From positions 1 to 38,116 of the IMG/VR virus record IMGVR_UViG_2802429226_000004: a stretch of DNA of 38,116 nucleotides. One strand, 5' to 3'. Under the pieces are notes generated by a model. That model made no database searches and was not told where the DNA came from. It saw only the letters and a program-made list of their open reading frames with translations. This stretch comes from a virus. Lineage: Duplodnaviria; Heunggongvirae; Uroviricota; Caudoviricetes. Shown here in pieces: positions 5,332 to 31,917 of the stretch (its first letter is position 1; every line of letters begins with the position of its first letter). The position numbers and the translations under genes are program-made.

Positions 5332-5916
5332 TTATTGTTTGCTTTTTTCGTTCTGGTTGATGACAAATTCAATGTAACTTTCGATCTTTGCTTTCTCGGT
5401 TTCGGGTAACAATGCGTAGCGTGAGCGGTCATAGTTGATAGTCGCAGGGTCGTGCGGGTGAATCAGTAGTTCATATCCGTGACGCCCGAATGCGGATGCA
5501 ACATTCTCCAGGGTGGAAATGGAAACGCTGACCTCATTGTTTAACAGGCGGCTGATTGTCACCTGGGCGACGCCGGATGCGCGGTGAAGTTTTCCCTGTG
5601 TTGAAAGGTCGCGGCTTTCGCTCATCCAGCGTTCCAGGTTGTGAGCCGCCAGCTGACCTATATCGCTCGGGCCGACAGGCTGAAAACCCTCCTGAGAAAG
5701 CGAACGATCAATATCAAGCCAGTTACGGGGTTTATTGGCGGCAGCTTCAATTTTTCGTGCAACCTGGTCGCCGATAACCTTCTTGCCAAGAGCCCAGCGG
5801 TTTACCAGATTTGCCTGAGTTCCAAGTTTTTCTGCCATCCGCGTCTGAACACCATTGAATTCACGGTCGATCAAGTCGTTGAGATTTTGCCTGCGGACGT
5901 CCTGGATACTTTTCAT
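5332..5916 (-). CDS. phage repressor (CI functional analogue) with two XRE-type HTH regions and no S24 peptidase domain
   Basis: 194 aa; N-terminal ...QTRMAEKLGTQANLVNRWALGKK... and a second ...SGVAQVTISRLLNNEVSVSISTLENVASAFG... HTH-like segment; divergent from a Cro-like gene across an operator-rich intergenic region. Confidence 0.75.
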   Translation of the reverse strand: MKSIQDVRRQNLNDLIDREFNGVQTRMAEKLGTQANLVNRWALGKKVIGDQVARKIEAAANKPRNWLDIDRSLSQEGFQPVGPSDIGQLAAHNLERWMSESRDLSTQGKLHRASGVAQVTISRLLNNEVSVSISTLENVASAFGRHGYELLIHPHDPATINYDRSRYALLPETEKAKIESYIEFVINQNEKSKQ

Positions 5917-8247: not shown

Positions 8248-8292
8248 CGTCTCAACAATTACCTATCAGGTAATAAAATATTCTAAACTCTA

Positions 8293-11756: not shown

Positions 11757-12087
11757 ATCAGCAGCAGAGCGCAAAGCCGCTCAGAGAGCCAGACAAGCTG
11801 CATCTGGTGTGCGTAAGCTGGAGATTGTGCTTGATGCTCAGGAAATTGAAATGCTTGAGCGTAACTGTGCCGCGCGTCGCCCCGGGCGTGCGCCTTACGA
11901 ATTTGGTGAGTATATAGCGTTACTTATCCGCCAGGATGATGCACGCGTGCGCGGGCGTATAAAATCGATCAGCAGAAAACGTTGCGGTAAGTGCGGCGAG
12001 AGAGTTCCAGTTAATTCATGCCCGTGTAATGGTGACTCGCAATGCTGGGTGACTAAAGGCTGGCATGAAACGAAATTAATAGTGTGA
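11749..12087 (+). CDS. zinc-finger protein, candidate late-gene regulator
   Basis: 112 aa; C-terminal CGKCGERVPVNSCPCNGDSQC Cys4 cluster; last gene before a strong terminator and the terminase operon. Confidence 0.5.
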   Translation: MAKSAAERKAAQRARQAASGVRKLEIVLDAQEIEMLERNCAARRPGRAPYEFGEYIALLIRQDDARVRGRIKSISRKRCGKCGERVPVNSCPCNGDSQCWVTKGWHETKLIV

Positions 12088-12135
12088 CATGTCACGAGTA
12101 GATTATGCATGATGAATTTGATGTGTTTTGAATAC

Positions 12136-12162
12136 TGCCGCCAACTATGGCGGCTTTATTTT
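12136..12162 (+). terminator. rho-independent terminator between early/accessory genes and the late operon
   Basis: CTGCCGCC-AACTAT-GGCGGC hairpin followed by TTTATTTT. Confidence 0.7.
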
Positions 12163-12172
12163 GCATGGTACT

Positions 12173-12207
12173 ATTACCACAACGGTAACTATTACCACGG
12201 TGGTTAT
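12173..12207. promoter_or_regulatory. two tandem 17-bp inverted repeats abutting the terminase small subunit start
   Basis: ATTACCACAACGGTAAC (12173-12189) and ATTACCACGGTGGTTAT (12191-12207), same family as the OL/OR operators. Confidence 0.45.
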
Positions 12208-12802
12208 GATGCCTGCTGAACCTAAAACCTATAAACGCAAATCAACGCAATTTAAGCCACTAACAGCAATGCAGGAGGCTTATTGCCAGTCATACATCAA
12301 AACGCCTGAAAACCAGACTCAGGCAGCGATTAACGCAGGATTCTCCCCAAATACAGCGGCAGTTAAAGCCAGCGTCATGATGCGCGATGAACGCATTCAA
12401 AAACGGATTGCCGAGTTGATGGAAGAGCGCAACAAACGAATGCGCGTCAGTGCTGATTACGTTCTCATGCGCCTGGTGGAGATCGACCAGATGGACGTGA
12501 TCGATATCCTCAACGACGATGGGAGCCTTAAACCAATCCGTGAGTGGCCGAAAATCTGGCGCACTACGCTTAGTGGCTTTGATCTGTCATCGACCATCAT
12601 GAACATGAACGAGGATTCGATAGAGACAATCCTCAAAAAAATTAAATGGCCTGACAAGGTGAAGAACCTTGAGCTTATTGGTAAGCATGTTGATGTCAAC
12701 GCGTTCAAAGAACGTCTGGATGTTAATGTGAATGTGACAATTGCTGATCGCATAGCAGCAGCTAGGAAGCGACTCAAAGAACGTCAGGATGGTAATCAGT
12801 GA
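12208..12802 (+). CDS. terminase small subunit
   Basis: 198 aa from ATG 12208; directly precedes and overlaps the large subunit gene; the upstream TTG extension was rejected because it runs through the terminator hairpin. Confidence 0.65.
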
Positions 12803-14274
12803 CAGATACAGCGTTATCTCCTGAAGAGCAGTTAATCGAGGATATTGCAGGGTTCACTCACGATCCGCTTGGCTATGCCCTCTATGCGTTCCCTTGGGGG
12901 GAAGAGGGGACTGAACTGGCACATGCCACCGGTCCACGTCAGTGGCAGGCCGATGCGTTCCGAGAGATACGTGATCACCTGCAGAATCCAGAGACGCGCT
13001 ATCAGCCGCTTATGCTGGCACGCGCTTCTGGTCACGGTATTGGTAAATCCGCATTCATCTCAATGCTGATCAACTGGGGCATGTCCACTTGCGAGGATTG
13101 TAAGGTCGTGGTGACCGCCAACACCGACAACCAGCTACGAACGAAGACCTGGCCGGAAATTATCAAGTGGTCGAACCTTGCTATCACGAAAGACTGGTTT
13201 ACCTGTACCGCTACCGCGATGTACAGCAATGATCCTGGGCACGACAAGCGGTGGCGAGCTGACGCAATCCCCTGGTCTGAGCACAACACTGAGGCATTCG
13301 CCGGACTACACAACGAGCGCAAACGCATCATCGTGGTATTCGATGAAGCGTCGAACATTGCGGATCTGGTGTGGGAAGTTGCTGAGGGTGCGCTTACGGA
13401 CGAAGACACTGAGATTATCTGGGTGGCGTTCGGAAACCCTACACGTAATACCGGGCGTTTTCGCGAATGTTTCCGCAAATACAAACACCGCTGGAAAACT
13501 GCGCAGATTGACAGCCGGACGGTGGAAGGTACTAACAAACAGCAGTTGCAGAAATGGGTTGATGACTACGGGGAAGACAGCGACTTCGTTAAAATCCGTG
13601 TGCGCGGCATATTCCCTGATGCATCTGAATTGCAGTTTATCCCTACCGGTCTTACTGATGAGGCAATGAAACGGGTGGTAACCGCTGCGCAGGTGGCACA
13701 TGCTCCGGTGATAATCGGTGTTGACCCGGCATATTCAGGCGTTGATGACGCGGTGATATACCTGCGGCAGGGGCTGCATAGTAAGGTGCTATGGACTGGC
13801 AACAAGACCACCGACGATCTGATTATGGCGAAGCGCATCGCTGACTTTGAAGACCAGTATCAGGCTGACGCGGTATTCATCGACTTCGGTTACGGAACCG
13901 GTTTGAAGTCAATCGGTGATGGCTGGGGACGTACATGGCAACTTGTTCCGTTCGGTGGTGCGTCAACTGACCCTCAGATGCTCAACAAGCGCGGGGAGAT
14001 GTTCAACTCATGCAAGACATGGCTGAGGTTGGGCGGGATGCTGGATGACCAGGAAACAGCGGACGATCTGTCTGCGGCAGAGTACAAAGTTCGCGTGGAC
14101 GGTAAAATCGTTATCGAACCGAAGGAAGATATCAAAGAACGACTTGGGCGTTCACCTGGTAAAGGCGATGCGCTACTGCTGACGTTTGCGTTCCCTGTGT
14201 CAAAGCGTCTGCTAATTCCCGGGCAGCAGAACCAGCAAGGCAAGGCCATTACAGATTACGATCCCTATGCTTAA
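12799..14274 (+). CDS. terminase large subunit
   Basis: 491 aa; Walker-A-like GHGIGKS near the N-terminus, ...IVVFDEASNI... and C-terminal nuclease-like region typical of terminase large subunits; GTG start overlapping the small subunit stop. Confidence 0.9.
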   Translation: MTDTALSPEEQLIEDIAGFTHDPLGYALYAFPWGEEGTELAHATGPRQWQADAFREIRDHLQNPETRYQPLMLARASGHGIGKSAFISMLINWGMSTCEDCKVVVTANTDNQLRTKTWPEIIKWSNLAITKDWFTCTATAMYSNDPGHDKRWRADAIPWSEHNTEAFAGLHNERKRIIVVFDEASNIADLVWEVAEGALTDEDTEIIWVAFGNPTRNTGRFRECFRKYKHRWKTAQIDSRTVEGTNKQQLQKWVDDYGEDSDFVKIRVRGIFPDASELQFIPTGLTDEAMKRVVTAAQVAHAPVIIGVDPAYSGVDDAVIYLRQGLHSKVLWTGNKTTDDLIMAKRIADFEDQYQADAVFIDFGYGTGLKSIGDGWGRTWQLVPFGGASTDPQMLNKRGEMFNSCKTWLRLGGMLDDQETADDLSAAEYKVRVDGKIVIEPKEDIKERLGRSPGKGDALLLTFAFPVSKRLLIPGQQNQQGKAITDYDPYA

Positions 14275-14316
14275 TCCGCTGGTGGGGATAATGTCGTTGA
14301 TATCCTCTGGTGAGGA

Positions 14317-14350
14317 TAAAACAAAGCCAGCTCGTAGGCTGGCTGTTTGT
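14317..14350. terminator. bidirectional rho-independent terminator between the terminase gene and the reverse-strand moron
   Basis: AGCCAGC-TCGTAG-GCTGGCT hairpin with T-rich tracts on both strands. Confidence 0.6.
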
Positions 14351-14364
14351 GACATGTCACGGTG

Positions 14365-14736
14365 TTATTGCTCGCTTAACTTCTGCTTCAGCAAGTAACC
14401 TTCAAGCATCCAGATTTTGTTTACAGCATTCTGCCGGGCAATCTTCCGACCAATTTCTGCATCAAAGTTTTCCGGGCTTGCACAGGCGCTCTCTCCGGTG
14501 ACGGTGAAGCCGTTGCGCAGCACCAGGACGCAGAACGTCAGCAGAGAAAGTGATTCGTGCGGCTGGTAGTTTACCTCTCCGCCAGTATGTTTCGCTTTTA
14601 TGGCTTTGCCAAAGGCACCATCCTCTGCTGTGAAATATGCCTCCTGAGCAATAATGCTTTCGATATGGTCTGGCGTAACGCGCGGAGCAGTTTTGCCTTT
14701 CTCAACGATTTCTTTTTCGATTTGCTGGTCGTTCAT
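14365..14736 (-). CDS. Gp49-like (N4 gp49 / Sf6 gp66 family) protein; moron
   Basis: 123-aa minus-strand ORF embedded in a plus-strand late operon; family assignment is tentative, from memory. Confidence 0.5.
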   Translation of the reverse strand: MNDQQIEKEIVEKGKTAPRVTPDHIESIIAQEAYFTAEDGAFGKAIKAKHTGGEVNYQPHESLSLLTFCVLVLRNGFTVTGESACASPENFDAEIGRKIARQNAVNKIWMLEGYLLKQKLSEQ

Positions 14737-14934
14737 AATCTCACCTTAAAAAAATGCCCGGCGAACCGGGCGAACTGGAAGCAATGAGTTATGCCTTCCG
14801 TGGCTGTACTGGTTTACAGCATGAAGTCATCGCAATGGCGTCCTGCTGTAAAAAGGGCGGTGATAGTCCTTCAAGGGAAACCATCACCGCCAAGCCCCTG
14901 GAACTTCTGGCATCACGGTCCTTAGGCGTGATTC

Positions 14935-15011
14935 TGGCGTGGCATGCAGGATTCGAACCTGCGACCAACCGCTTAGAAGGCGGTTGCTCTGTCCAGCTGA
15001 GCTAATGCCAC
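14935..15011 (-). tRNA. tRNA-Arg (anticodon UCU)
   Basis: Hand-folded 77-nt cloverleaf on the minus strand: acceptor GUGGCAU/AUGCCAC, D-arm GCUC/GAGC, anticodon stem ACCGC/GCGGU with loop CUUCUAA, T-arm GCAGG-UUCGAAU-CCUGC, discriminator G and encoded CCA. Confidence 0.85.
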
Positions 15012-15332
15012 AACGCTGAGAGCACTTAGCCTGTTAAGGCGCCACACTTTGTCGCGGCTCCATAAATGCTCTCATCGTTGTACCCTCGTCTCTTCCGAGG
15101 CGTTACACCGAATCGCCGGGATGGTGAATCCCCGTGCGCGGAATAAAACCGCTCGACTTGCACATTCCGGCTACCTGGTTCGTTTGCCCGAGCAAGGGAG
15201 GGTGCCCCTTAAACGTATCCAGACCGCTATCGGCGCATGTGCCATACGCCGTACTGCTCAAAATAAAAGCTCACTCCACCTGTTCAATTTAACGACAAGC
15301 CAGTCAGGTTAATAACCGGAATGAACTCTTTG

Positions 15333-15411
15333 CTTACCTGAAAGGTAATAATTAGTGCGTTAAATGTCAAGTATCTACGATAAATAAATCACATGTGGTT
15401 AAATTGGTAAT
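15333..15411 (+). promoter_or_regulatory. late-operon control region: operator-like 17-mer plus ACATGTGGTT-N5-GGTAAT element upstream of the portal operon
   Basis: CTTACCTGAAAGGTAAT at 15333-15349; ACATGTGGTT at 15391-15400; GGTAATAAT at 15406-15414. Confidence 0.4.
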
Positions 15412-15438
15412 AATTTAATTGCGTACGGAGTCATTGAT

Positions 15439-15645
15439 ATGTGCATGGGTAGCTCACCATCAGTGCCTGCAACACCAGAAGTTCAGGCAGCACCACAGGA
15501 GCAGGATGCCGCCGTTGTTGATGCCCGCGACGAAGAAACACGTCGCCGTCGCGCTGCTGCTGGTCGTAGTTCTACGCTGCTTACCGGTTCTCAGGGCGAC
15601 ACATCAACCGCTAATACCAGCGGTAAAACGCTGCTTGGTCAGTAA
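15439..15645 (+). CDS. small hypothetical protein (68 aa)
   Basis: GGAG RBS; Ala/Arg-rich low-complexity sequence; shares an identical 11-nt translation-initiation context with the portal gene. Confidence 0.4.
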   Translation: MCMGSSPSVPATPEVQAAPQEQDAAVVDARDEETRRRRAAAGRSSTLLTGSQGDTSTANTSGKTLLGQ

Positions 15646-15659
15646 CCGGAGTCATTGAA

Positions 15660-17339
15660 ATGGCGGAAACAACTAAAGAGCGATTGAACAAACAGTTCGC
15701 ACAACTTGAAAGCGAGCGTCAGTCGTTCGAGCCGCACTGGCGCGAGTTGAGTGATTACATCAACCCGCGTGGTTCCCGCTTTCTGACTTCTGAGGTCAAC
15801 CGTAACGATCGACGCAATACACGCATTATTGATTCGACCGGGACTATGGCGGCGCGCACTCTCGCCAGCGGCATGATGTCAGGCATCACAAGCCCCGCGC
15901 GTCCGTGGTTTCGCCTGGCTACGCCAGATCCTGAAATGATGGATTATGGCCCTGTTAAGTTGTGGCTTGAGGCGGTGCAGAACCGCATGAACGATATGTT
16001 CAATAAGTCGAATCTCTACCAGTCTCTTCCGCAGTTATACGGAAGCCTCGGCACATACAGCACTGGTGCAATGGCGGTGCTGGAGGATGACGAGGACATC
16101 ATTCGCACAATGCCATTCCCGATAGGCAGTTACTACCTGGCTAACTCACCTCGTGGCAGTGTGGACACCTGTTTTCGCAAGTTCTCTATGACTGTTCGTC
16201 AGCTTGTTCAGGAGTTCGGGCTAAATAACGTCAGCAAATCCGTAAAAAGCATGTGGGAAAGCGGCACCTACGAGAAGTGGATTGAAGTGATGCATTCGGT
16301 TTACCCGAACATTGACCGCGATACATCGAAGCTGGATAGCAAGAACAAGCCATTCAAATCGGTTTATTACGAGGTCGGTGGCGATAACGACAAGTTGTTG
16401 CGTGAGTCCGGATTCGATGAGTTTCCAATTATGGCTCCGCGCTGGGAAGTTAACGGCGAAGATGTTTATGGATCATCATGCCCGGGTATGCTGGCGCTTG
16501 GACCTGTTAAGGCATTGCAGCTTCTCCAGAAGCGCAAGTCGCAGTTGATTGATAAAGCCACCAATCCTCCGATGGTTGCTCCGACTTCCCTCAAGAATCA
16601 GCGCGCCTCCCTTCTTCCTGGCGACATCACGTATATCGATCAGATTACTGGTCAGGATGGCTTCAGGCCTGCTTATCTGGTTAACCCCAGTACAGCAGAT
16701 TTGGTGGCAGACATTCAGGACACTCGTCAAATCATTAACAGCGCCTACTTTGTCGATCTGTTCATGATGTTGCAGAACATCAATACCCGCTCGATGCCTG
16801 TTGAAGCGGTGATCGAAATGAAAGAAGAAAAACTTCTGATGTTGGGGCCGGTTCTGGAGCGTCTGAACGACGAATGTCTTAATCCTCTCATTGACCGCGC
16901 TTTCTCGATGATGGTGCGTAAAAACATGCTGCCGCCACCGCCTGACGCGATGGAAGGCATGCCACTGAAGGTCGAATACATTTCCGTCATGGCTCAGGCG
17001 CAGAAGTCTATCGGCCTGTCCAGTCTGGCGTCCACGGTTAACTTCATTGGTCAACTTGCACAAGCGAAACCAGAAGCTCTCGACAAACTCAACGTTGATC
17101 AGGCGATCGATGCATTCGCTGATATGTCTGGAGTGTCTCCAACCGTCATTGTTCCGCAGGAACAGGTTGAGCAGGCTCGCCAGCAACGGGCACAGCAGCA
17201 ACAGCAGCAACAAATGATGGCGATGGGGATGGCGGCGGCACAGGGTGCCAAGACGCTAAGCGAAGCTAAAACTTCGGATCCGAGTGTTTTGTCAGCTATG
17301 GCGAATGCAGTTAGTGGTCAGGGTGGGCAATCACAATGA
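15660..17339 (+). CDS. portal (head-to-tail connector) protein, T7 gp8-like
   Basis: 559 aa; C-terminal Gln/Ala/Met-rich tail ...QQQQQQQMMAMGMAAAQGAKT... resembles the T7 gp8 C-terminus; gene order portal-scaffold-capsid. Confidence 0.8.
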   Translation: MAETTKERLNKQFAQLESERQSFEPHWRELSDYINPRGSRFLTSEVNRNDRRNTRIIDSTGTMAARTLASGMMSGITSPARPWFRLATPDPEMMDYGPVKLWLEAVQNRMNDMFNKSNLYQSLPQLYGSLGTYSTGAMAVLEDDEDIIRTMPFPIGSYYLANSPRGSVDTCFRKFSMTVRQLVQEFGLNNVSKSVKSMWESGTYEKWIEVMHSVYPNIDRDTSKLDSKNKPFKSVYYEVGGDNDKLLRESGFDEFPIMAPRWEVNGEDVYGSSCPGMLALGPVKALQLLQKRKSQLIDKATNPPMVAPTSLKNQRASLLPGDITYIDQITGQDGFRPAYLVNPSTADLVADIQDTRQIINSAYFVDLFMMLQNINTRSMPVEAVIEMKEEKLLMLGPVLERLNDECLNPLIDRAFSMMVRKNMLPPPPDAMEGMPLKVEYISVMAQAQKSIGLSSLASTVNFIGQLAQAKPEALDKLNVDQAIDAFADMSGVSPTVIVPQEQVEQARQQRAQQQQQQQMMAMGMAAAQGAKTLSEAKTSDPSVLSAMANAVSGQGGQSQ

Positions 17340-17632
17340 CAGATTACGAAGACGATCAACTGAAAGAAGAAAACGCCCGTAAGCAACGTGACATGGCACA
17401 GCGTGAAATTGATGACATTCGCTTTGTCATGAGCAGTGAACAGGGGCGTCGCGTTGTCTGGTCTGTGCTGGAGAAAGGCCGTGTGTTTTCCGCTATCTCA
17501 CCGATGGACGCTATGGCAATGGCATTTAATGAGGGGCAGCGCAATCTGGCGCTGGAACTGTTTCAGCGCGTTATGGCGCATTGCCCTGAACAGTATTTGA
17601 AGATGGCCAAAGAGGCCAGTGAACAGGAGTGA
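17336..17632 (+). CDS. hypothetical virion-module protein
   Basis: 98-aa ORF, ATGA-coupled to the portal gene. Confidence 0.5.
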   Translation: MTDYEDDQLKEENARKQRDMAQREIDDIRFVMSSEQGRRVVWSVLEKGRVFSAISPMDAMAMAFNEGQRNLALELFQRVMAHCPEQYLKMAKEASEQE

Positions 17633-17634
17633 TC

Positions 17635-18330
17635 ATGAATTTATTTGAGCGTTTGCTGTATCGCCGTCTTTGCAATGAGCAACCAGTCGATGGTGGAGCA
17701 GCTCCGGCTGCGTCAGAACCGTCAGCGCCTGCAGGTGATAACCCTGCTCCAGCTGGTGATCCATCACAACAAGAAGGTGATAAGCCGCAACCTGTTGCTG
17801 ATGGCGATAAACCTGCTGATGACAAAAAGCCTGAAAGCGATAAGCAGGGTGAAAAAAAGGACGGCGATAAACCGGATGGTGCGCCGGAGAAGTACGAGTT
17901 TCAGGCTGCCGAAGGCGTAGAGCTGGATACAGAAGCGTTAAAGGAATTCGAGCCGGTGGCGCGAGAACTTAACCTGACCAACGAGCAAGCGCAAAAGCTG
18001 GTTGATGCTTATCCGAAGATTCTGGCAGGTGTTCAGCAGCGCCAGGCAGAAGCCTGGCAGAAAACAACCGAGCAGTGGGCTGCGGATGTAAAAGCTGACA
18101 AAGAAATCGGTGGCGACAAGTTGATTTCTAACCTTAGCGCCGCACAGCGTGCGCTTGACCAGTTCGGGACACCTGAACTCAAAGAATATCTGAACACCAC
18201 CGGGCTGGGTAATCACCCTGATCTGGTCAAAACGTTTGTGAAAATCGGAAAGGCTATGTCTGAAGATGGCATGGTCACCGGTGGTAATGAAGGCCAGCGT
18301 AGTGCGGCCGAAGTGCTCTATGGCAAATAA
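17635..18330 (+). CDS. scaffolding protein (putative)
   Basis: About 232 aa from ATG 17635 (AGGAG upstream); acidic, Pro/Ala/Asp-rich low-complexity N-half followed by helical region; located between portal and major capsid genes. Confidence 0.55.
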   Translation: MNLFERLLYRRLCNEQPVDGGAAPAASEPSAPAGDNPAPAGDPSQQEGDKPQPVADGDKPADDKKPESDKQGEKKDGDKPDGAPEKYEFQAAEGVELDTEALKEFEPVARELNLTNEQAQKLVDAYPKILAGVQQRQAEAWQKTTEQWAADVKADKEIGGDKLISNLSAAQRALDQFGTPELKEYLNTTGLGNHPDLVKTFVKIGKAMSEDGMVTGGNEGQRSAAEVLYGK

Positions 18331-18344
18331 GAGAGGAAATAACA

Positions 18345-19331
18345 ATGACTGTTAAAGGCTTAACTGCGCTAACGCTGGCTGACTGGGGTAAGCGCGTCGA
18401 TCCAAACGGGAAAGTCGATAAGATTATCGAGCTTCTCGGTCAAACTAACCCGATCCTTCAGGATATGCCTTTTGTCGAAGGGAACCTTCCTACCGGACAC
18501 CGAACCACCATTCGTTCTGGTTTACCTTCAGCTACCTGGCGTTTGCTGAACTATGGCGTACAGCCAAGCAAATCAACCACAGTGCAGGTAACCGATTCCG
18601 TTGGCATGCTGGAAACCTATGCTGAAGTCGATAAGTCACTGGCTGATCTGAACGGCAATACCGCCGAATTCCGCCTGTCTGAAGACCGCGCATTTATTGA
18701 AGCGATGAATCAGCAGATGGCGCAGACGCTGTTTTATGGTGATTCCAGCGTTAACCCTCAGCAGTTTATGGGACTGTCCTCCCGCTATTCCAGCCTGTCT
18801 GCAGGTAATGCTCAGAACATCATTGATGCTGGTGGCACGGGTACAGATAACACCTCAATCTGGTTAGTGGTGTGGGGCGAAAACACCGTGCATGGCATCT
18901 TCCCGAAAGGGCAGAAGGCTGGCATTCAGATGGAAGATAAAGGCCAGGTGACACTTGAAGATGCTAATGGCGGCAAGTACGAAGGCTACCGTACCCATTA
19001 CAAATGGGACAACGGACTTGCTCTGCGTGACTGGCGTTATGTTGTTCGCATTGCAAACATCGATGTCAGCAATCTTTCAGAACCTTCCTCTGCCGCAAAT
19101 ATTGCGAAGTTGATGGTTAAAGCACTGCATCGCATTCCAAACCGTGGCATGGGTCGCCCGGTGTTCTACATGAACCGCACTGTAGGCCAGGCTCTTGATT
19201 TGCAGTCTCTGGAGAAAACATCTCTGGCGATTAGCGTAAAAGAGACTGAAGGCGAGTGGTGGACGTCATTCCGTGGTGTACCAATCCGTGAAACTGATGC
19301 GCTTCTGGAAACAGAAGCCCGCGTGGTGTAA
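18345..19331 (+). CDS. major capsid protein
   Basis: 328 aa; GAGAGGA RBS; position after the scaffold gene, followed by a terminator a few genes later. Confidence 0.75.
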   Translation: MTVKGLTALTLADWGKRVDPNGKVDKIIELLGQTNPILQDMPFVEGNLPTGHRTTIRSGLPSATWRLLNYGVQPSKSTTVQVTDSVGMLETYAEVDKSLADLNGNTAEFRLSEDRAFIEAMNQQMAQTLFYGDSSVNPQQFMGLSSRYSSLSAGNAQNIIDAGGTGTDNTSIWLVVWGENTVHGIFPKGQKAGIQMEDKGQVTLEDANGGKYEGYRTHYKWDNGLALRDWRYVVRIANIDVSNLSEPSSAANIAKLMVKALHRIPNRGMGRPVFYMNRTVGQALDLQSLEKTSLAISVKETEGEWWTSFRGVPIRETDALLETEARVV

Positions 19332-19382
19332 CGCCTGTTATTAACCTGTGGGTCGTAACAGACCCACTAATGGAGAAAGAAG

Positions 19383-19820
19383 ATGATCACCGACAAACTG
19401 TTGATGTTCTCCGAAGCACAGGCGGTAACTGATACCGCGGCTTCTACTGACGTAATCGATCTCGGTCCAATTGACGGAAAACGTCGTGATATCGGCGTGG
19501 GTTACCCGCTTGAGTTTTGGGCGCTGGTTAACACAGCCGCCGCAGCAAGCGGTGATGCAACTGTAAACATCCAGTTGCAGACGAGTGAGGATAACAGCTC
19601 ATGGACCACTATTTATGATAGTGGTGCACTGGCAAAGACCACCCTGACAGCAGGTAAACGAGTTGTTTCTGCAAAGGTGCCTGCCGGTGTTCAGCGATAT
19701 CTGCGTGTTAACTACTCCGTCGCAACTGGCCCACTAACGGCTGGCGAATTCACTGCTGGTATCAGTCTTGATGTTGATGCCAATACGCCGTATCCGACCC
19801 GCTCAAAAGTAACTGGTTAA
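19383..19820 (+). CDS. head decoration / capsid-stabilising protein (putative)
   Basis: 145 aa, Thr/Ala/Gly-rich, immediately after the major capsid gene. Confidence 0.5.
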   Translation: MITDKLLMFSEAQAVTDTAASTDVIDLGPIDGKRRDIGVGYPLEFWALVNTAAAASGDATVNIQLQTSEDNSSWTTIYDSGALAKTTLTAGKRVVSAKVPAGVQRYLRVNYSVATGPLTAGEFTAGISLDVDANTPYPTRSKVTG

Positions 19821-19830
19821 GGTGATATCG

Positions 19831-20166
19831 ATGTCAGGTGAGAAACCAAGATACCGCGTTCTGCGCCTCTCTCATATCCATAACACTCTGTGGCCGGAGG
19901 GGGCAGAAATCGAATACGAAGGTGAGCCTGGTAGCGCACTGGAACCTGTTAACGATGCAGCCAGACAGGCAAAAGCAAAGGTTGCAGGAAAGGTGACTAT
20001 GGCAGCAACCAGCACCAAAATCATCAACGATGTGTCAGATGATGGTGAACTGGATAAGCTCCGTGAAGAGTACGAATTGCTCTTTAACGAGAAGCCACAC
20101 CATAACGCCAAAGCCGAAACGCTCCGCGAGAAGATCGCAGATAAGCGTAAAGAACTGGGCGTGTAA
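19831..20166 (+). CDS. hypothetical virion-module protein
   Basis: 112 aa from ATG 19831 with AAGGTG RBS. Confidence 0.45.
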   Translation: MSGEKPRYRVLRLSHIHNTLWPEGAEIEYEGEPGSALEPVNDAARQAKAKVAGKVTMAATSTKIINDVSDDGELDKLREEYELLFNEKPHHNAKAETLREKIADKRKELGV

Positions 20167-20184
20167 GCCTCGCGAATCAGACAA

Positions 20185-20204
20185 GGGGCTTCGGCCCCTT
20201 TATT
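20185..20204 (+). terminator. rho-independent terminator after the capsid gene block
   Basis: GGGGC-TTCG-GCCCC hairpin followed by TTTATT. Confidence 0.7.
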
Positions 20205-20216
20205 GCAGGAGTGTAT

Positions 20217-20540
20217 ATGGAACTCGTAAACCTCAAAACCGGCACTGACAGCTACCAGGATGAGAGCGGAGAAACCAGAACTCGCGATGAATACCCGTGG
20301 GGGCTGTGCATCACTCTTAATAACGACACATTGAATAAGCTGAAGGCGCAACCTCAGGGCGTCGGAACAGAAGTGATGATAACTGCAAAGGCTGTTATTC
20401 GAGGCCTGTCTGCCAGAGAAACTGACGATGGTGTTAATCGCAGCGCCGATCTGCAGATCACTGATATGGCGATCGCTCCTGTTTCCGGGGATGTAGAAAA
20501 ATCAGCGGCTGAAACACTGTACGGCAATGGGGGTGAGTAA
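20217..20540 (+). CDS. hypothetical virion protein
   Basis: 108 aa; AGGAG RBS; ATGA-type overlap with the next gene. Confidence 0.45.
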   Translation: MELVNLKTGTDSYQDESGETRTRDEYPWGLCITLNNDTLNKLKAQPQGVGTEVMITAKAVIRGLSARETDDGVNRSADLQITDMAIAPVSGDVEKSAAETLYGNGGE

Positions 20541-21145
20541 TGGCCTCTGTAGTAGAGATCTGCAATCGTGCGCTGTCCAATATTGGCAATAGCCGCAGCA
20601 TTAACAGCCTGACGGAAGCCAGCAAGGAAGCGGGGGAATGTTCACTGCACTTTGAGGCCTGCCGTGATGCTGTGCTTTCTGATTTTGACTGGAACTTTGC
20701 TACCAAACGCGTGGTGCTTGCAGATACGAACAATCCACCGCCTGACTGGGAATATGCGTACCAGTACCCGTCCGATTGTCTGCGCATTACTGAAATTATG
20801 CTTCCTGGTGTACGCAATCCAACAACAGCAATGCGCGTTCAGTACGAAGTTGGTGCAGACACCAACGGAACAGGAAAATTGATCTACACAGACCAGCCGC
20901 AGGCATGGCTCAAGTATGTCTCTCGCGTTTCAGATGTGAACATGTTTGATGCCATTTTTATGGAGGCGTTGGCCTGGCGTCTTGCGGCAGCTATTAACAT
21001 GGCGCTGACTGGGAATGCAGACCTCGGTACGTTTGCCCTCAATATGTACAATCGCGTGATTCTTAGTGCTGGCTCGCATAGCCAGAATGAATCACAGGAA
21101 CCTCAGCCACCGGTTGATGAGTTTACCATTGCGAGGTTGTCCTGA
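20540..21145 (+). CDS. tail tubular protein A-like adaptor (T7 gp11-like)
   Basis: 201 aa; N-terminal ICNRALSNIGNSRSINSLTE...RDAVLSDFDWNF parallels the T7 gp11 N-terminal pattern (ILASIG...VSTLEG...SRGWTF) as I recall it. Confidence 0.6.
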   Translation: MASVVEICNRALSNIGNSRSINSLTEASKEAGECSLHFEACRDAVLSDFDWNFATKRVVLADTNNPPPDWEYAYQYPSDCLRITEIMLPGVRNPTTAMRVQYEVGADTNGTGKLIYTDQPQAWLKYVSRVSDVNMFDAIFMEALAWRLAAAINMALTGNADLGTFALNMYNRVILSAGSHSQNESQEPQPPVDEFTIARLS

Positions 21146-23616
21146 TGGCTATCAGTTGGATCCAGCCCAGCTTTGCTGGTGGTGAGATTGGACCGTCGTT
21201 GTACGGACGTATCGACATGGCGAAGTACCAGGTGGCATTGCGCAAGTGCGATAACTTTATCGTGCGGCAGTATGGCGGCGTTGAGAATCGACCTGGTACG
21301 CATTTTGTCGGTGCCGCCAAATACCCAAATCGGAAATGCCGCCTGATCCCGTTCCAGTTCTCGACGGTTCAGACTTATGCTCTGGAGTTCGGACACCAGT
21401 ACATGCGCGTTATCAAAGATGGTGCGTTGGTGCTGAACAGCAGCAATGTTATTTATGAAATTGCCACGCCATATACTGAAGCCGATCTGTTCAGAATTAA
21501 ATTCACGCAAAGCGCAGACGTGCTTACGCTGGTTCATCCGGCATACCCGCCGAAAGAGTTGCGCCGCTATGCGCATGACAACTGGCAACTGGTTGATGTG
21601 GTAACGAAGAACGGGCCATTTGAAGATATCAATATTGACGAGTCAGTGACGGTTTATGCCAGCGCCAGCACCGGGACAATTACGTTAACGGCAAGCGCCT
21701 CTATTTTTGGCGCGGAGCAGGTAGGCAAATTGTTCTATCTGGAACAGCCAGCAGTGGATTCAGTACCGGTATGGGAAACCAGTAAGAGTACGTCGATTGG
21801 CGATATTCGCCGTGCAGACAGTAACTACTATCGCGCCGTTACAGCAGGCAAAACAGGCACTTTGCGCCCTTCGCATACAGAAGGCACATCATGGGATGGC
21901 TGGGGCGGCTCCGGTGATGATGATACTGGCATTGAGTGGGAGTATCTGCACAGTGGTTTTGGCATTGCCCGTATAACTGCTGTAAATGGCACTACTGCAA
22001 CTGCTGAGGTGATTTCCTATATCCCTTCGCAGGTCGTTGGCGAGGATAATGCCAGCTATAAATGGGCTAAATATGCCTGGAACAGTGTTAATGGTTATCC
22101 TGGCACTGTTGTTTATTATCAACAGCGTCTTTACTTCGCCGCATCGACTGCGTTCCCTCAGACTATCTGGGCCAGCCGTACTGGGGATTATAAGGATTTT
22201 GGCAAAAGCAATCCTACGCAGGATGACGATAGAATTATCTACACCTATGCCGGGCGTCAGGTTAATGAGATCCGCCACCTGATTGATGTTGGTTCGCTGG
22301 TGGCGCTGACTTCCGGAGGTGAGTACGTCATCACCGGCGACCAGAACAAAGTGTTAACCCCATCATCATTTGCATTCAGCTCTCAGGGATCAAATGGCTC
22401 AAGCAACGTCCCACCAATTGCCGTGGCGAATATTGCTCTGTTCGTCCAGGAGAAAGGCAGTGTTGTCCGTGATCTGGCCTATTCATTCGATGTTGACGGC
22501 TATCAGGGGAACGACCTTACTATCCTTGCCAATCATCTTTTTCAGAAGCACAGCATTGTTGACTGGTGCTTCTCGATTGTCCCTTACTCCAGTGCCTTCT
22601 GCATTCGTGATGACGGTAAATTACTGGTGATGACCTATTTGCGTGATCAGCAGGTTTTTGCATGGGCACCACAATCCAGTACCGGAAAATATGAAAGCAC
22701 ATGCAGTATCAGCGAAGGCAATGAAGATGCGGTGTATTTCGTCGTTAACAGAACCGTTAACGGGCAAACAGTGAGATACATCGAGAGACTGTCCAGCCGT
22801 TTATTTACCAGCGATGAAGATGCTTTCTTTGTTGATTCTGGCCTTAGCTATGATGGAAGAAATACGTCTGACAGAACGATGACCATCACTGGTGGTTCTG
22901 GTGAATGGGATTACCACGCGGAATATACAATCAGTGTTTCTGGTGGTGCGTACTTCACCAGTAGTGATGTTGGTGCGCAACTACAGTTCCCTTATACCGG
23001 AGCTGATCCTGATACTGGCGATGAAGTGTCAAAAGAATTACGTTGCGACATTATTTCTGTAACCAGCAATACCGCAGTAGTGGTTCGTGCTAACAGGAAC
23101 GTCCCGCCATCCCTCAGGAATGTGGCCACCACGAACTGGCAGATGGCGCGCCGGACATTTGGCGGCTTGTCTCATCTTGAAGGCCAGACCGTAAACATCC
23201 TCTCTGATGCGAACGTGGAACCACAAAAAGTGGTTTCCGGAGGTGCCGTCACGCTGGAATCACCGGGGGCTGTTGTGCACATCGGCCTGCCAATAACTGC
23301 TGAATTCGAAACACTGGATATCAACATTAACGGACAGGAAACGCTGCTGGACAAAAAACAGGTGATCCCGTCCGTTACTCTGGTTGTGAATGCCAGTCGC
23401 GGCATCTGGGCGACTACGCCCGGCGGTAAATGGTACGAATATCCACAGCGTGAATTCGAGTTCTACGATGATCCTGTTGATGATGCTACCGGAAAAGTAG
23501 AAGTGAAACTGGACAGTAACTGGGGCAAAAACGGGCGTGTAAAAATCCGTCAGCTTGACCCGTTGCCGCTGTCTGTTCTTGCCGTTATTCCTCGCCTTAC
23601 TGTTGGGGGATTCTGA
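21145..23616 (+). CDS. tail tubular protein B-like (nozzle) protein
   Basis: 823-aa ORF directly after the gp11-like gene, matching the conserved podovirus order gp11-gp12; assignment by size and synteny. Confidence 0.55.
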   Translation: MAISWIQPSFAGGEIGPSLYGRIDMAKYQVALRKCDNFIVRQYGGVENRPGTHFVGAAKYPNRKCRLIPFQFSTVQTYALEFGHQYMRVIKDGALVLNSSNVIYEIATPYTEADLFRIKFTQSADVLTLVHPAYPPKELRRYAHDNWQLVDVVTKNGPFEDINIDESVTVYASASTGTITLTASASIFGAEQVGKLFYLEQPAVDSVPVWETSKSTSIGDIRRADSNYYRAVTAGKTGTLRPSHTEGTSWDGWGGSGDDDTGIEWEYLHSGFGIARITAVNGTTATAEVISYIPSQVVGEDNASYKWAKYAWNSVNGYPGTVVYYQQRLYFAASTAFPQTIWASRTGDYKDFGKSNPTQDDDRIIYTYAGRQVNEIRHLIDVGSLVALTSGGEYVITGDQNKVLTPSSFAFSSQGSNGSSNVPPIAVANIALFVQEKGSVVRDLAYSFDVDGYQGNDLTILANHLFQKHSIVDWCFSIVPYSSAFCIRDDGKLLVMTYLRDQQVFAWAPQSSTGKYESTCSISEGNEDAVYFVVNRTVNGQTVRYIERLSSRLFTSDEDAFFVDSGLSYDGRNTSDRTMTITGGSGEWDYHAEYTISVSGGAYFTSSDVGAQLQFPYTGADPDTGDEVSKELRCDIISVTSNTAVVVRANRNVPPSLRNVATTNWQMARRTFGGLSHLEGQTVNILSDANVEPQKVVSGGAVTLESPGAVVHIGLPITAEFETLDININGQETLLDKKQVIPSVTLVVNASRGIWATTPGGKWYEYPQREFEFYDDPVDDATGKVEVKLDSNWGKNGRVKIRQLDPLPLSVLAVIPRLTVGGF

Positions 23617-24080
23617 TGATTGATGTTCAAATTATTCCCGCTACCGAAGAGCATCTTCAGATGATTTTGCCGGATGTTCGTCAGGCTGATATTGACGAAC
23701 TGTATGCGGTATCGCTGATGACTACCGAAGATGCGCTGCGCGTTGGTCTTCGCACTGCGACTATGGCCTGGTCAGGGTTCGCGAACGGAGAACTGGTAAC
23801 CATGTTTGGTGTATCTCCGGCGTCAATGATCGGTGGCAATGGTACGCCCTGGCTGGTAGGAACCAGCCGTATTGAAAAATATCAGAAGACATTTCTGCGC
23901 CACTGCCGCCCTGTATTGCAGCAGATGCTGGCAGTTTATCCGCGCCTGGAAAACTACGTCGACGAGCGAAACCATGTTGCCAAAGCATGGCTGCACTGGC
24001 TTGGATTCAGGCTTGAAGAAGCCGCGCCTTATGGTGCTCTTGGTCTTAATTTCCACAGATTTCACATGGAGAGAAAATAA
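23616..24080 (+). CDS. internal virion protein (gp13 position), hypothetical
   Basis: 154 aa; overlaps the upstream stop; synteny only. Confidence 0.45.
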   Translation: MIDVQIIPATEEHLQMILPDVRQADIDELYAVSLMTTEDALRVGLRTATMAWSGFANGELVTMFGVSPASMIGGNGTPWLVGTSRIEKYQKTFLRHCRPVLQQMLAVYPRLENYVDERNHVAKAWLHWLGFRLEEAAPYGALGLNFHRFHMERK

Positions 24081-24625
24081 TGTGCGATCCGGTTATTGCT
24101 GGTGGCGCAATGCTCGCCATGAGTGGCATTCAGGCATACACCCAGTACCAACAGGGAAAGTATGCCTCGAAGGTTGCAGAAGCGAACGCAGATATAGCCA
24201 CAGCTCAGGCAAATGATGCAATAAACAGAGGTAACGCTGAAGCTGAGCAACGACGCAGAGAGACCCGACAGCGGCTTGGTACACAGGCGGCGACAATGGG
24301 GGCTACCGGCGCTGATTTATCTACAGGTAACGCGCTGGATATATTTGGCGACACTGCCAAGTTTGGCGCTCTTGATTCGCTGACGACGGTGAATAACGCG
24401 CAACGCGAGGCTTACGGTTATCAGGTTCAGGCTGCCAACTATAAAGCAGAAGCCAGTTCAGCCCGTAAACAGGGGAATGTGGGAGCAGCAACAACATTGC
24501 TCACTGCGCCTCTGAAGGCATACGGTGCGTACCAGATGTTTGGTGGGACGTGGAGTCCGTTTACTCAAAGCACTCCTGCGCCAATCGGGGCAGCAGCAGG
24601 AACCAGATTACCCGGAGGATTATAA
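24080..24625 (+). CDS. internal virion protein B-like (T7 gp14-like)
   Basis: 181 aa; N-terminus MCDPVIAGGAMLAMSGIQAYTQYQQGKY resembles the T7 gp14 N-terminus (MC...AISGAQA...) as recalled; Ala/Gly-rich. Confidence 0.55.
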   Translation: MCDPVIAGGAMLAMSGIQAYTQYQQGKYASKVAEANADIATAQANDAINRGNAEAEQRRRETRQRLGTQAATMGATGADLSTGNALDIFGDTAKFGALDSLTTVNNAQREAYGYQVQAANYKAEASSARKQGNVGAATTLLTAPLKAYGAYQMFGGTWSPFTQSTPAPIGAAAGTRLPGGL

Positions 24626-27138: not shown

Positions 27139-28937
27139 GTTACTTTGGCCTTAATCCAGTAAACCAGAATCAGCAGCTTGACGAAGCAGCATCAAATCCA
27201 GTTGGCTTTAACAGCGATGTTGGTTTTTTCGACAATGCTGTAGGAGCGGCATTGTCTGGTTTGTACTCCGGGCTGGTGGCAAAGCCAGATCAGTTGCTAT
27301 GGGCAGGGATGGATAAAATCGTATCCCCGATTGCTCAGCTTGTTAACGAAAACACCTCGCTCAATGACACTTCAGTTTCATACATTGCTGAGCAGAGAAA
27401 ACTAGCAGAGCAGCAGGTTAAGCGGCTGACGCCTGATGCCGCGACAACCGGAACCGCCGGGCAGGTCCTTTATGGGTTGTTCGATATGGGCGGGCAGGCT
27501 GTTGTCGGTACAACGCTCGGTGGTCCGGTCGGAGGTGCTGCGGCGGTAACTTCTCTACAGGGTTTTTCTGAGTTTGAACGGTTGACAGCACAGGGTGTTG
27601 ATTTCAGGACGGCGCAGGAAGCGGGATTAGTGCAGGGTATTACTGCTGGTGCCGGAACACTGATCCCTATGAGCCTCGGGTTACGTGCTGGTGGTGCGCT
27701 GGCGGAAGGTGTGGCGGCTCAGCTTGCGCGGACGGGTGAAAGTTCAGTGCGACGCGCCGCAGCAACAGCAGTACGTGCAACGCCAGATATTGCCTATGCC
27801 GCAGGTACAAATATTGCGTTCGGTATGGCACAGCGTGGGCTTACTGCAAAAACGCTTCGTGATGGTGGCTATAGCGAAATGGCTAACCAGTATGATGTGT
27901 TGGATCGACAGGCAATTGCTATTGATGCTGTTCTTGGGGTGGCGTTTGGTGGTGTCGGCAGATTTATTAACTCTCGCGGCGAGTCTACAAGCGCACCAAA
28001 TTTTTCACCAGTTGATATTGATGCTGCACTGGCGGCGAATGCCGCTCATCATGCTGAAATTGATATTGCTCCCGGCGTTCCGATCAACGTGCTTTCGCGT
28101 AATTCGCACATTCAGGCTCTGCGAAAAGCCATGTCTGATGTTAGCCAGGGGAGACCTGTAGACGTTGCCAGCATTGTTGAGTCTGCATCTTTCAGTGAAA
28201 TTCCTGGGCGCAAGAGTCTGCTGTCTCAGGCAGTTAATGAGGCTCTGTCATCTGTAGATGATGGAGTAACGGCGCGCGCTATAGAAAATCGGTTGCTTGA
28301 AGAACAGGCCGCGCAGCTTTTGTCGCGTGGCGATAGAAAGGTTTACCAGTCTGAAATCGCTAATAGCCAACGAATTATTGAAAATCTCACTGAACAGCGC
28401 GCACAAATTCTTGCAGAAGAGCCAACCGGTAGCGGTAAGGCTTTATCTCGTGCTAGATCAGATAAACAGGCCAGACTTCGCGATATTGACCAACGAATCC
28501 GGCAGGCACAAGAACGCCTGGAATTTTCTCGTAACGCGTTGGCGCCGCACGAGCCTGGAGGTCAGTTTTTTGAAGCTCGAGCAGAACTGGCACGACGACA
28601 GCAGGCAGAAAGTGAACTTAATGCTCAGGCTGTTTCATTCTATAAAACAGCAGAGGTCAGGACGCCAGAAGAAGTAGCTCCTTTTGAGCCCGGTAAGATA
28701 TTGCAACAGACAGAACAAAAAATGATGGCAGATCCGGCAGGAGATATTGATCTGCGTATAGCTGAAGACTCGCTGCTTGAATCACCTGACATGATAATCA
28801 CCGTGCTGGATGATGATGGTAATCCACAATCGCGCAGTGCGCGTGAAGTACTGGATGAAGCGAACAGGGAAAGTGAGCAGGCAATACAGGATTCCAGCCT
28901 GTTTGATGTTGCTGTGGCGTGTTTCTTGAGAGGTTAA
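27135..28937 (+). CDS. internal virion / ejection protein
   Basis: 600 aa, Ala/Gly-rich with long helical C-half; ATGA overlap with the upstream gene. Confidence 0.6.
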   Translation: MSYFGLNPVNQNQQLDEAASNPVGFNSDVGFFDNAVGAALSGLYSGLVAKPDQLLWAGMDKIVSPIAQLVNENTSLNDTSVSYIAEQRKLAEQQVKRLTPDAATTGTAGQVLYGLFDMGGQAVVGTTLGGPVGGAAAVTSLQGFSEFERLTAQGVDFRTAQEAGLVQGITAGAGTLIPMSLGLRAGGALAEGVAAQLARTGESSVRRAAATAVRATPDIAYAAGTNIAFGMAQRGLTAKTLRDGGYSEMANQYDVLDRQAIAIDAVLGVAFGGVGRFINSRGESTSAPNFSPVDIDAALAANAAHHAEIDIAPGVPINVLSRNSHIQALRKAMSDVSQGRPVDVASIVESASFSEIPGRKSLLSQAVNEALSSVDDGVTARAIENRLLEEQAAQLLSRGDRKVYQSEIANSQRIIENLTEQRAQILAEEPTGSGKALSRARSDKQARLRDIDQRIRQAQERLEFSRNALAPHEPGGQFFEARAELARRQQAESELNAQAVSFYKTAEVRTPEEVAPFEPGKILQQTEQKMMADPAGDIDLRIAEDSLLESPDMIITVLDDDGNPQSRSAREVLDEANRESEQAIQDSSLFDVAVACFLRG

Positions 28938-28942
28938 ATTAA

Positions 28943-31909: not shown

Positions 31910-31917
31910 CATGTCAC

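Follow-up and report, generated by a model that had tools for sequence, protein, structure and literature searches.

A conserved pseudoknotted RNA with a tRNA-Arg module precedes an Acb4-family gene in a phiV10-like temperate phage

A 38,116-nucleotide (nt) stretch of viral DNA (IMG/VR record IMGVR_UViG_2802429226_000004, analysed at its full length and called the window here) carries a minus-strand unit between its plus-strand large terminase (terL) and portal genes. The unit contains a transfer RNA (tRNA) gene, tRNA-Arg(UCU), and a 123-amino-acid (aa) open reading frame (ORF) of the PF13876 family. We found that the 430 base pairs (bp) 5' of the tRNA are not an empty spacer but hold a conserved structured RNA of about 180 nt, which we call the core, together with a candidate promoter and operator. 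This RNA family is absent from Rfam 15 and unannotated in RefSeq, and comparison of its members indicates that the tRNA is a swappable part of a larger non-coding unit that is itself conserved. A preliminary description of the window had treated the tRNA as a simple gene within an insert; it overlooked both the RNA unit in which the tRNA occupies a slot and two terminators, T1 and T2, that lie between the tRNA and the ORF. On balance, we consider it probable that the whole is a repressor-controlled, early leftward accessory unit of a phiV10-like temperate phage. Along the minus strand, it runs from promoter and operator through RNA core, P6, tRNA, hairpin, T1, T2 and Acb4-family ORF to a third terminator, T3:

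15342-15370, minus strand: candidate sigma-70 promoter, read from the sequence as TTGACA (15370-15365), a 17-nt spacer and TACCTT (15347-15342)
15333-15349, no strand: repressor-operator-like palindrome cTTACCTGAAAGGTAAt with the motif TTACC-N5-GGTAA, overlapping the -10 element
15256-15335, minus strand: variable 5' leader, from the presumed transcription start to the RNA core (alignment A4)
15076-15255, minus strand: conserved structured RNA core, about 180 nt, with two pseudoknots (alignment A1, covariance model R1)
15011-15080, minus strand: P6 module, a helix CAACGAUGAGAGCA / UGCUCUCAGCGUUG around a hypervariable insert, the last pair of which uses G1 of the tRNA
14935-15011, minus strand: tRNA-Arg, anticodon UCU, CCA encoded (ARAGORN, as the only tRNA in the window; Rfam RF00005)
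14912-14933, minus strand: conserved hairpin AAUCACG-CCUAAGGAC-CGUGAU directly 3' of the CCA; of 130 distinct instances of the family, 54 have a similar hairpin
14850-14891, minus strand: terminator T1, a 14-bp stem and U-run (terminator scan)
14748-14771, minus strand: terminator T2, GCCCGGuucgCCGGGC followed by U7, abutting the ribosome-binding site (terminator scan; epsilon15 annotates a rho-independent terminator)
14365-14747, minus strand: ribosome-binding site AAGGUGAG (14740-14747) and 123-aa Acb4-family ORF (14365-14736; PF13876)
14316-14344, minus strand: terminator T3, hairpin 14325-14344, the end of the minus-strand unit (terminator scan; 'putative rho-independent terminator' in phiV10)

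The fold of the core comes from comparison of diverged copies. An exact-pattern scan of IMG/VR with an invariant 19-mer of the core returned at least 119 loci in about 40 clusters at ~93% identity, and 37 diverged representatives, with a mean column identity of 67%, make up alignment A1. All of the following elements lie on the minus strand:

15231-15251: hairpin P1
within 15076-15255: pseudoknot PK1, in which the P1 loop GCACAU pairs with an invariant AUGUGC
15219-15228 with 15169-15178: helix P2, AGCGGUCYGG with CCRGGUAGCC, with a variable extension
15157-15175: invariant 19-mer GGTAGCCGGAATGTGCAAG
15136-15154: variable hairpin P3
15118-15133: hairpin P4
within 15076-15255: pseudoknot PK2, in which the P4 loop CACC pairs with a downstream GGUG
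15084-15100: hairpin P5, CCUCG-GAAGAGA-CGAGG

Across A1, the 31 pairs of the core are paired in 97.9% of cells, as against 28-45% when the partners are slid, and 11 of the 31 change on both sides; none of 500 shuffles attained the observed value. About 60 positions are invariant. PK2 has one compensatory change (CG, n = 33; AU, n = 4), and PK1 is without covariation support because it never varies. The G-U pairs of the core fit only the minus strand of the window. A nested pairing proposed by RNAalifold (columns 6-8/112-114 and 23-25/100-102) was dropped for hairpin P1, as columns 9 and 21 covary (18 GC, 18 AU). The covariance model R1 finds a single copy in the window at 149 bits and a truncated remnant in epsilon15 at 43 bits, and the 596-nt stretch that runs from the transcript start to include T2 folds with z = -6.0. 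Searching Rfam at E<=10 with positions 14250-15500 yielded the tRNA and chance matches only; at the gathering score, the window and 10 homologous loci gave no match to the core and matches to tRNA, C4 and IsrK elsewhere; and the core of a lambdoid locus (L004) had no Rfam match at E<=10. The literature that we searched holds no description of this RNA family, and one could exist in literature beyond that. Two candidates from that literature are unrelated: the Pas small RNAs, which belong to the late region, and the mEp021 system, in which Gp17 acts with nut sites.

Downstream of the core, the unit is modular. In 24 distinct variants, whose inserts span 12-275 nt, compensatory changes maintain P6; the helix ends between GUUG and UGG, exactly at tRNA position +1. 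The slot that follows P6 holds a true tRNA-Arg(UCU) in 27 of the 130 distinct instances (30 of 135 in total) and, in 59 further distinct instances, a domain of 75-200 nt closed by GUUGUGG/CCACAAC, for which folding predicts a cloverleaf-like shape. We considered whether these non-tRNA units are degenerate CCA-ending tRNAs and rejected this; none matches the tRNA model, and only 7 of the 59 have a CCA 3' of the closing helix. A terminator-like hairpin lies 3' of the core in 99 of 123 distinct instances, mostly 300-400 nt past the 19-mer. Some members have two or three tandem P6-plus-cloverleaf modules after one core (loci L110, L106, L014, L124, L127 and L045, from IMG/VR and SopranoGao); the cargo region therefore appears expandable. 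Separately, a further module, GCCCAGACGAUAUCUGAGUGGCUU...GAGCCGGUGGAAUCCCGGCAC, recurs in some family members, and SPN1S (L009 1890-2030, minus strand) and a Stx2a phage (Stx2a_1447, L012 1390-1530, minus strand) have a P6 insert of ~95 nt in common, with two hairpins that resemble tRNA T arms, CUGG-UUCAAUU-CCAG and GUC(A/C)G-UUCGAUU-CGGAC; similar hairpins are found in the inserts of other members.

The family is widespread in Escherichia coli. The 180-nt core matches 1,839 of 5,426 complete E. coli genomes at 2,468 places, 551 of them on plasmids, and among the matches listed the copies are without annotation. Comparing the 702 bp 5' of the ORF with complete E. coli genomes recovered phiV10-like prophages and about 650 records that match only 15008-15252, at ~83% identity and again unannotated. 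An independent pattern for the P1/P2 region gave 23 loci in a collection with one genome per species, and R1 confirms 22 of them: all are from Enterobacterales, apart from one 1.7-kb contig of a metagenome-assembled genome labelled Bacillota. An Acidovorax match to the pattern was not confirmed by the covariance model.

The genomic contexts of the core have a common layout. Uetakeviruses other than the window carry it in the same gap between terL and portal. In lambdoid prophages of the SfV/CPS-53 type, it lies in a gap of ~700 nt between the cI-like repressor gene and yfdP, the first early-left gene; carriers include mEp460, cdtI, Stx2c and Stx2a phages and O104:H4 C227-11, and the equivalent position is occupied in a Stenotrophomonas phage and in mEp390. 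The lambdoid core sits ~50 nt past a PL-type promoter that has operators and is followed by a terminator and then by the whole early-left operon; no N-like ORF separates PL from the terminator in the lambdoid prophages examined. P1, P7, D6, SJ46 and RCS47 carry the core in the gap between trnI and ban (1487-1672 in P1, NC_005856, locus L007; 5001-5169 in a P1-like plasmid, locus L005). These P1-type elements lack P6 and have a tRNA-Ile(CAU), labelled tRNA-Met by ARAGORN, directly 5' of the core across a gap of ~12 nt. In all contexts, the flanking genes are oriented as the element is.

The control region of the unit points to regulation by the phage repressor. The -35 and -10 elements and the operator are invariant in seven Uetakeviruses (alignment A4), in which the leader ranges from ~25 nt (SPN1S) to ~200 nt (PAT1 and epsilon15). 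The motif TTACC-N5-GGTAA occurs at 10 sites in the window, against 0.58 expected:

5198, 5260, 5972, 6020, 8259, 8321, 12174, 12192, 15334 and 32276, no strand: TTACC-N5-GGTAA sites (pattern count)

Two pairs of these operator-like sites flank an ORF for a repressor with two helix-turn-helix motifs (5332-5916), and a third pair stands at 8259 and 8321; two sites precede the small terminase gene (terS), one precedes the tRNA unit and one the tailspike gene. Those at 15334 and 32276 have the same sequence, and CAYATGTGGTT...GGTAATA lies ~45 bp downstream of each. The homologous site in epsilon15, ATTACCTAAAAGGTAAT, is annotated 'repressor, lysogeny', and the layout of the sites in the window mirrors that of the epsilon15 sites. 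Because the palindrome overlaps the -10 element, repression in the lysogen is predicted, and the unit is probably expressed early in the lytic cycle; expression in the lysogen, which the preliminary description had raised, is thus unlikely. T1 likely forms the 3' end of a non-coding transcript of ~485 nt (from ~15335 to 14850). T2 runs into the ribosome-binding site and leaves no space for a promoter before the Acb4-like ORF, which would therefore be expressed only through read-through.

The ORF had been described as a Gp49-like gene of unknown function. The family call is sound, with a match to PF13876 (Phage_gp49_66) at E = 2e-35 and 121.5 bits (cut-off 27) over profile positions 1-82 of 82, whereas the statement about function is outdated: PF13876, with 1,331 members, is defined as the Acb4 family of cyclic-dinucleotide sponges that counter the cyclic-oligonucleotide-based anti-phage signalling system (CBASS; bioRxiv 10.1101/2024.12.30.630793). 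All eight of the Acb4 homologues assayed bound 3'3'-cyclic GMP-AMP (3'3'-cGAMP), and homologues from phages of Gram-negative bacteria also bound 3'3'-cyclic di-AMP (3'3'-cAA) (bioRxiv 10.1101/2024.12.30.630793). By its profile match, the 123-aa ORF falls within this published definition. A phmmer search of the PDB sequences found 9e4w, 'anti-CBASS 4 (Acb4)' of Bacillus phage SPO1, at E = 0.0067. The alignment covers the beta3-alpha4 region, in which the ENFxxEIGR motif is kept, as are three hydrophobic residues of the adenine pocket that contact the ligand in SPO1 Acb4, F48 (F77 in the ORF), F62 (F91) and I66 (I95). SPO1 N63 is D92 in the ORF, at the position of a backbone contact, and K36 and K81 lie beyond the alignment.

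The slot that this gene occupies is variable in content. The gap between terL and the gene for the homologue of epsilon15 gp3 is filled in seven of seven Uetakeviruses compared, with Acb4-like, Tad2-like, DUF551 or unknown cargo. Klebsiella phage ST512-KPC3phi13.3 carries in the homologous slot a 173-aa Tad2-like anti-Thoeris sponge (PF11195, E = 4e-26; locus L013 635-1156), Tyrion has a DUF551 protein together with unknowns, and TL-2011b, SPN1S and PAT1 carry unknowns; the unknown genes encode 115 aa in TL-2011b, 143 aa in PAT1, 64 aa in SPN1S and 123 aa in Tyrion. Judged by these contents, the terL-portal gap of epsilon15-like phages tends to act as a swap-in slot for counter-defence genes. 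Given the Acb4-like and Tad2-like cargo, the unknown genes of the slot are good candidates for new anti-defence functions.

The tRNA itself looks like a working tRNA-Arg that reads AGA. Its RF00005 score is 71.7 bits, against a gathering score of 29, with the full model covered, and ARAGORN places the anticodon tct at gene position 35, so that the cleanly folding tRNA-Arg(UCU) of the preliminary description is borne out. Compared with argU of E. coli K-12, the T arm and the anticodon loop CUUCUAA are identical, the D arm differs at two D-loop positions only, and the acceptor stem (GUGGCAU/AUGCCAC) and the anticodon stem depart by fully compensatory changes only. The argU alignment shows that A20, C35 and U36, the identity elements for arginyl-tRNA synthetase, are retained. 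It is because the stems are compensatory, these three positions are kept and the CCA is encoded that we read the gene as functional. Annotations of a tRNA-Arg already exist in a number of relatives and in RefSeq prophages. In epsilon15, the tRNA is missing, as is most of the RNA core, through a secondary deletion of 394 bp: the 13-nt repeat TTCCCTTGATGCT is present in two copies in SPN1S, 394 nt apart (in the P2 extension of the core and in the T1 loop), and in one copy, at the deletion junction, in epsilon15 (locus L161 2618-2725 versus SPN1S locus L162 2380-3330), which argues for deletion between direct repeats.

In the account that we favour, the unit would be silent in the lysogen and would fire on infection or induction. 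The repressor-controlled early promoter would drive the core, P6, the tRNA and T1; the tRNA would be freed by RNase P and 3' trimming and would add AGA decoding capacity for the tailspike, tail/ejection and lysis genes. A fraction of the polymerases would pass T1 and T2 and express the Acb4-like sponge, which would soak up CBASS cyclic-dinucleotide signals. The core could be a cis-acting leader that lets RNA polymerase pass T1 and T2, put-like in action and unrelated in fold; we offer this part, drawn by analogy, tentatively and at rather less than an even chance. A cis role in early transcription is favoured because the core is promoter-proximal, because strong terminators and same-strand genes follow it and because the lambdoid prophages have no N-like ORF. 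Alternatively or in addition, the core might become a stable RNA with its ends set by the flanking tRNA or tRNA-shaped unit. A broader proposal, that the core represents a new class of phage RNA heading repressor-controlled early operons in Uetakeviruses, SfV/CPS-53-type lambdoids and P1, as either an N-free read-through element or an ornate RNA with swappable tRNA-like cargo, is possible and somewhat doubtful.

Several observations weigh against the favoured account. The candidate promoter is sub-consensus (-10 TACCTT) and falls below the threshold of a consensus scan, and the operator assignment is based on the epsilon15 annotation and on site statistics. A polymerase made resistant to terminators would be apt to ignore T3 as well and to transcribe terL in antisense. 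Although most of its core is lost, epsilon15 still has T2 and the Acb4-like gene, so the core is not indispensable for that gene. P1 has no obvious terminator between core and ban. Four of the SPO1 Acb4 contacts are replaced in the ORF (E49 by T78, V56 by C85, Y57 by A86 and T70 by I99), and its ligand specificity is therefore not predictable. From terS through the major capsid gene (12128-21145), the AGA count is 0. SPN1S, which has the tRNA, uses 5.7 AGA per 1000 codons and epsilon15, which lacks it, uses 4.3; with the window this makes a weak trend of AGA use with tRNA presence over three genomes.

The alternative that survives best, although we think it doubtful, is that the product that matters is the structured RNA, as a stable and trans-acting ornate RNA, and that the tRNA or tRNA-shaped unit is mainly an RNase P signal or a linked cargo. 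The invariant positions and the two pseudoknots of the core point to a tertiary fold with a conserved binding partner; the unit spans promoter to terminator; its slot holds either a true tRNA or a cloverleaf-like domain; and P6 ends exactly where the tRNA begins, whereas in P1 the tRNA is directly 5' of the core instead. GOLLD and ROOL RNAs likewise lie near tRNA islands, and GOLLD can have tRNAs in its linker (PMC12286853). Yet no homology links the core to GOLLD, ROOL, C4 or another Rfam family, the non-tRNA units match no tRNA model and seldom carry CCA, and the tRNA keeps all of its identity elements, so that decoding appears selected. That the core consistently heads early operons is compatible with action in cis as well as in trans.

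Less likely still is the reading of the preliminary description, a classic moron with independent, perhaps lysogenic, expression, in which late genes gain AGA decoding capacity from the tRNA and no role is assigned to the gene beside it. Much of its descriptive basis holds. A minus-strand insert does lie between co-directional plus-strand terminase and portal genes, as annotation and PF12236 confirm; the opposite strand and the unit's own terminators point to expression apart from the late operon; and a promoter-like site of its own, three minus-strand terminators and variable gap content fit the term moron. AGA is also enriched: it makes up ~2 per 1000 codons in E. coli K-12, and at 7.2-7.4 per 1000 in the window (greedy ORF calls) it is ~3.5-fold commoner. 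The tailspike gene has 16 AGA in 781 codons, the tail/ejection genes (21145-31417) have 29 and a lysis-region ORF of 160 codons has 5, and the tRNA-bearing phages use somewhat more AGA than epsilon15. A boost to late genes is thus plausible for the tailspike, tail/ejection and lysis genes, and not for the stretch from terS to the major capsid gene, in which the head genes have no AGA at all. The moron reading also has to accommodate an operator palindrome that overlaps the -10 element and predicts repression in the prophage, a neighbouring gene from a characterised anti-defence family, and a gap that is occupied in every Uetakevirus compared, the loss of the tRNA from epsilon15 being secondary. 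It further takes no account of the conserved RNA that surrounds the tRNA.

We regard as improbable a third possibility, that the tRNA serves counter-defence by replacing host tRNA-Arg(UCU) cut by a tRNA-cleaving defence or a colicin-type nuclease. The tRNAs of phage T5 counteract defences that target tRNAs, and tRNA-Arg is a substrate of colicin D. The tRNA lies beside sponge genes (Acb4-like here, Tad2-like in the Klebsiella relative) and is probably co-transcribed with them, its predicted control is early and repressor-dependent, and its acceptor and anticodon stems differ from those of argU. However, the anticodon loop is identical to that of host argU, which would expose the phage tRNA as well to any nuclease that recognises this loop, and the slot holds non-tRNA units in other family members; no phage-defence nuclease of E. 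coli is known to us to target tRNA-Arg(UCU) specifically.

That the 180 nt 5' of the tRNA encode a small protein rather than an RNA is very improbable: stop-free frames do cross the core in many homologues and ORFs are annotated there (PhiV10p04, mEp460_037 and a 47-aa coding sequence in a P1-like plasmid), but these differ in strand and frame, the length differences among homologues are not multiples of three (residues 0/1/2: 20/8/9), the 19-nt and other blocks are invariant, third positions included, at a mean column identity of 67%, and the compensatory pairs and strand-specific G-U pairs are those of an RNA. A riboswitch for CBASS signals is likewise unlikely; P6 and the tRNA stand between the core and the terminators, and different contexts have different genes downstream.

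The remaining features of the gap and its surroundings are as follows:

12799-14274, plus strand: large terminase gene terL, named from the phiV10 and epsilon15 annotations
15660-17339, plus strand: portal gene (PF12236, E = 3e-187)
14754-15005 and 15049-15312, plus strand: ORFs opposite the tRNA or the structured RNA (compare locus L002 2672-2923)
14772-14849, minus strand: segment between T1 and T2 with two hairpins (14817-14848 and 14777-14799), kept in phiV10, Klebsiella ST512, SPN1S and epsilon15
14349-14360, no strand: perfect 12-bp palindrome GTGACATGTCAC (exact match)

phiV10 and the O157 typing phages 9 and 10 match positions 14250-15460 at 96% identity, which places the window among phiV10/epsilon15-like temperate phages of the genus Uetakevirus. 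The other plus-strand flanking genes are terS (PF03592) and a gene for a 68-aa homologue of epsilon15 gp3. phiV10 annotates a plus-strand ORF, PhiV10p04, opposite the tRNA, with counterparts in TL-2011b, mEp460_037 and Ayreon; such ORFs that overlap the tRNA or the structured RNA are probably spurious annotations. The segment between T1 and T2, together with T2, has on the minus strand the outline of a small RNA ending at a terminator, and the sole Rfam match of 14772-14849 is to a RyhB-like RNA and insignificant (E = 2.2).

At the left end of the unit, a bidirectional terminator and a palindrome had been noted. The T3 hairpin has a good U-tract on the minus strand; it also lies 3' of terL on the plus strand, where the T-run is weak, so that action in both directions is borne out only in part. 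The palindrome GTGACATGTCAC is present at the expected place and recurs, with exact copies at 12084-12095, 14349-14360 and 31906-31917 and a one-mismatch copy at 17388-17399, against 0.09 expected; it may be a protein-binding site. Two copies adjoin terminator hairpins at convergent gene ends, and one stands just before terS. Turning to T1, its 3' arm and U-tract read CCGCUCUUUUUACAA in lambdoid copies (L004 4825-4885, minus strand) and CCGCCCUUUUUACAG in the window (14848-14862), both resembling the boxA consensus GCUCUUUAACAA. An ACA motif follows the T1 U-run in many family members.

The tRNA and the PF13876 gene are of known, ordinary kinds, and the RNA family is the new part. This pseudoknotted RNA escaped annotation despite its presence in Stx-converting phages, the O104:H4 outbreak strain, P1 and about one-third of complete E. 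coli genomes. Should it control read-through of early terminators, it would explain left-operon expression in a large group of lambdoid prophages that lack N; should it be a stable RNA with tRNA cargo, it would provide a small and genetically tractable E. coli counterpart to the puzzle posed by GOLLD and ROOL. If either is true, an uncharacterised functional RNA is present in about one-third of the E. coli genomes that have been sequenced.

Each part of the unit can be set beside a known system. Like SPO1 Acb4, the ORF product is a small phage protein of PF13876 with the ENFxxEIGR motif, and it differs in length (123 aa versus 96 aa) and in the replacement of E49, which is specific for guanine, and of Y57 and T70, which contact phosphate. 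The tRNA is a UCU elongator like argU and the tRNA-Arg(UCU) of other phages (T4; annotations in O157 typing phages 9 and 10, SPN9TCW and SPC32H), but it is fused at +1 to helix P6 rather than being free-standing or part of a tRNA array.

For the core, the closest functional parallel may be putL and putR of HK022, which also lie just 3' of a repressor-controlled early promoter with terminators and then early genes downstream. Unlike put (~70 nt, two stem-loops, two copies), the core is ~180 nt, has two pseudoknots and occurs once per phage, and R1 finds no match at E<=10 in the part of HK022 where putL and putR lie; on these comparisons, the core is not a put homologue. ROOL is ~580 nt long and GOLLD more than 800 nt. 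Like them, the core is a structured phage or prophage RNA near tRNA genes; unlike them, it measures 180 nt in a unit of ~485 nt, has Enterobacterales hosts and a fixed place at the head of early operons, and gives no match to either (Rfam, E<=10). GOLLD and ROOL are phage RNAs found near tRNA islands, GOLLD sometimes with tRNAs in its linker (PMC12286853).

A third parallel concerns the ends of the RNA. In the C4 RNA of P1 and P7 and the CI RNA of P4, both processed by RNase P, and in MALAT1-mascRNA, a tRNA or tRNA-shaped element abuts a functional RNA. The core does not match the C4 model, and the C4 family is found elsewhere in the lambdoid locus L004. By analogy with these RNAs, the adjoining tRNA-shaped element of the unit could set an RNA end through RNase P. 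We liken this RNA family, in concept and without homology, both to put-type leaders and to the tRNA-linked ornate RNAs of phages.

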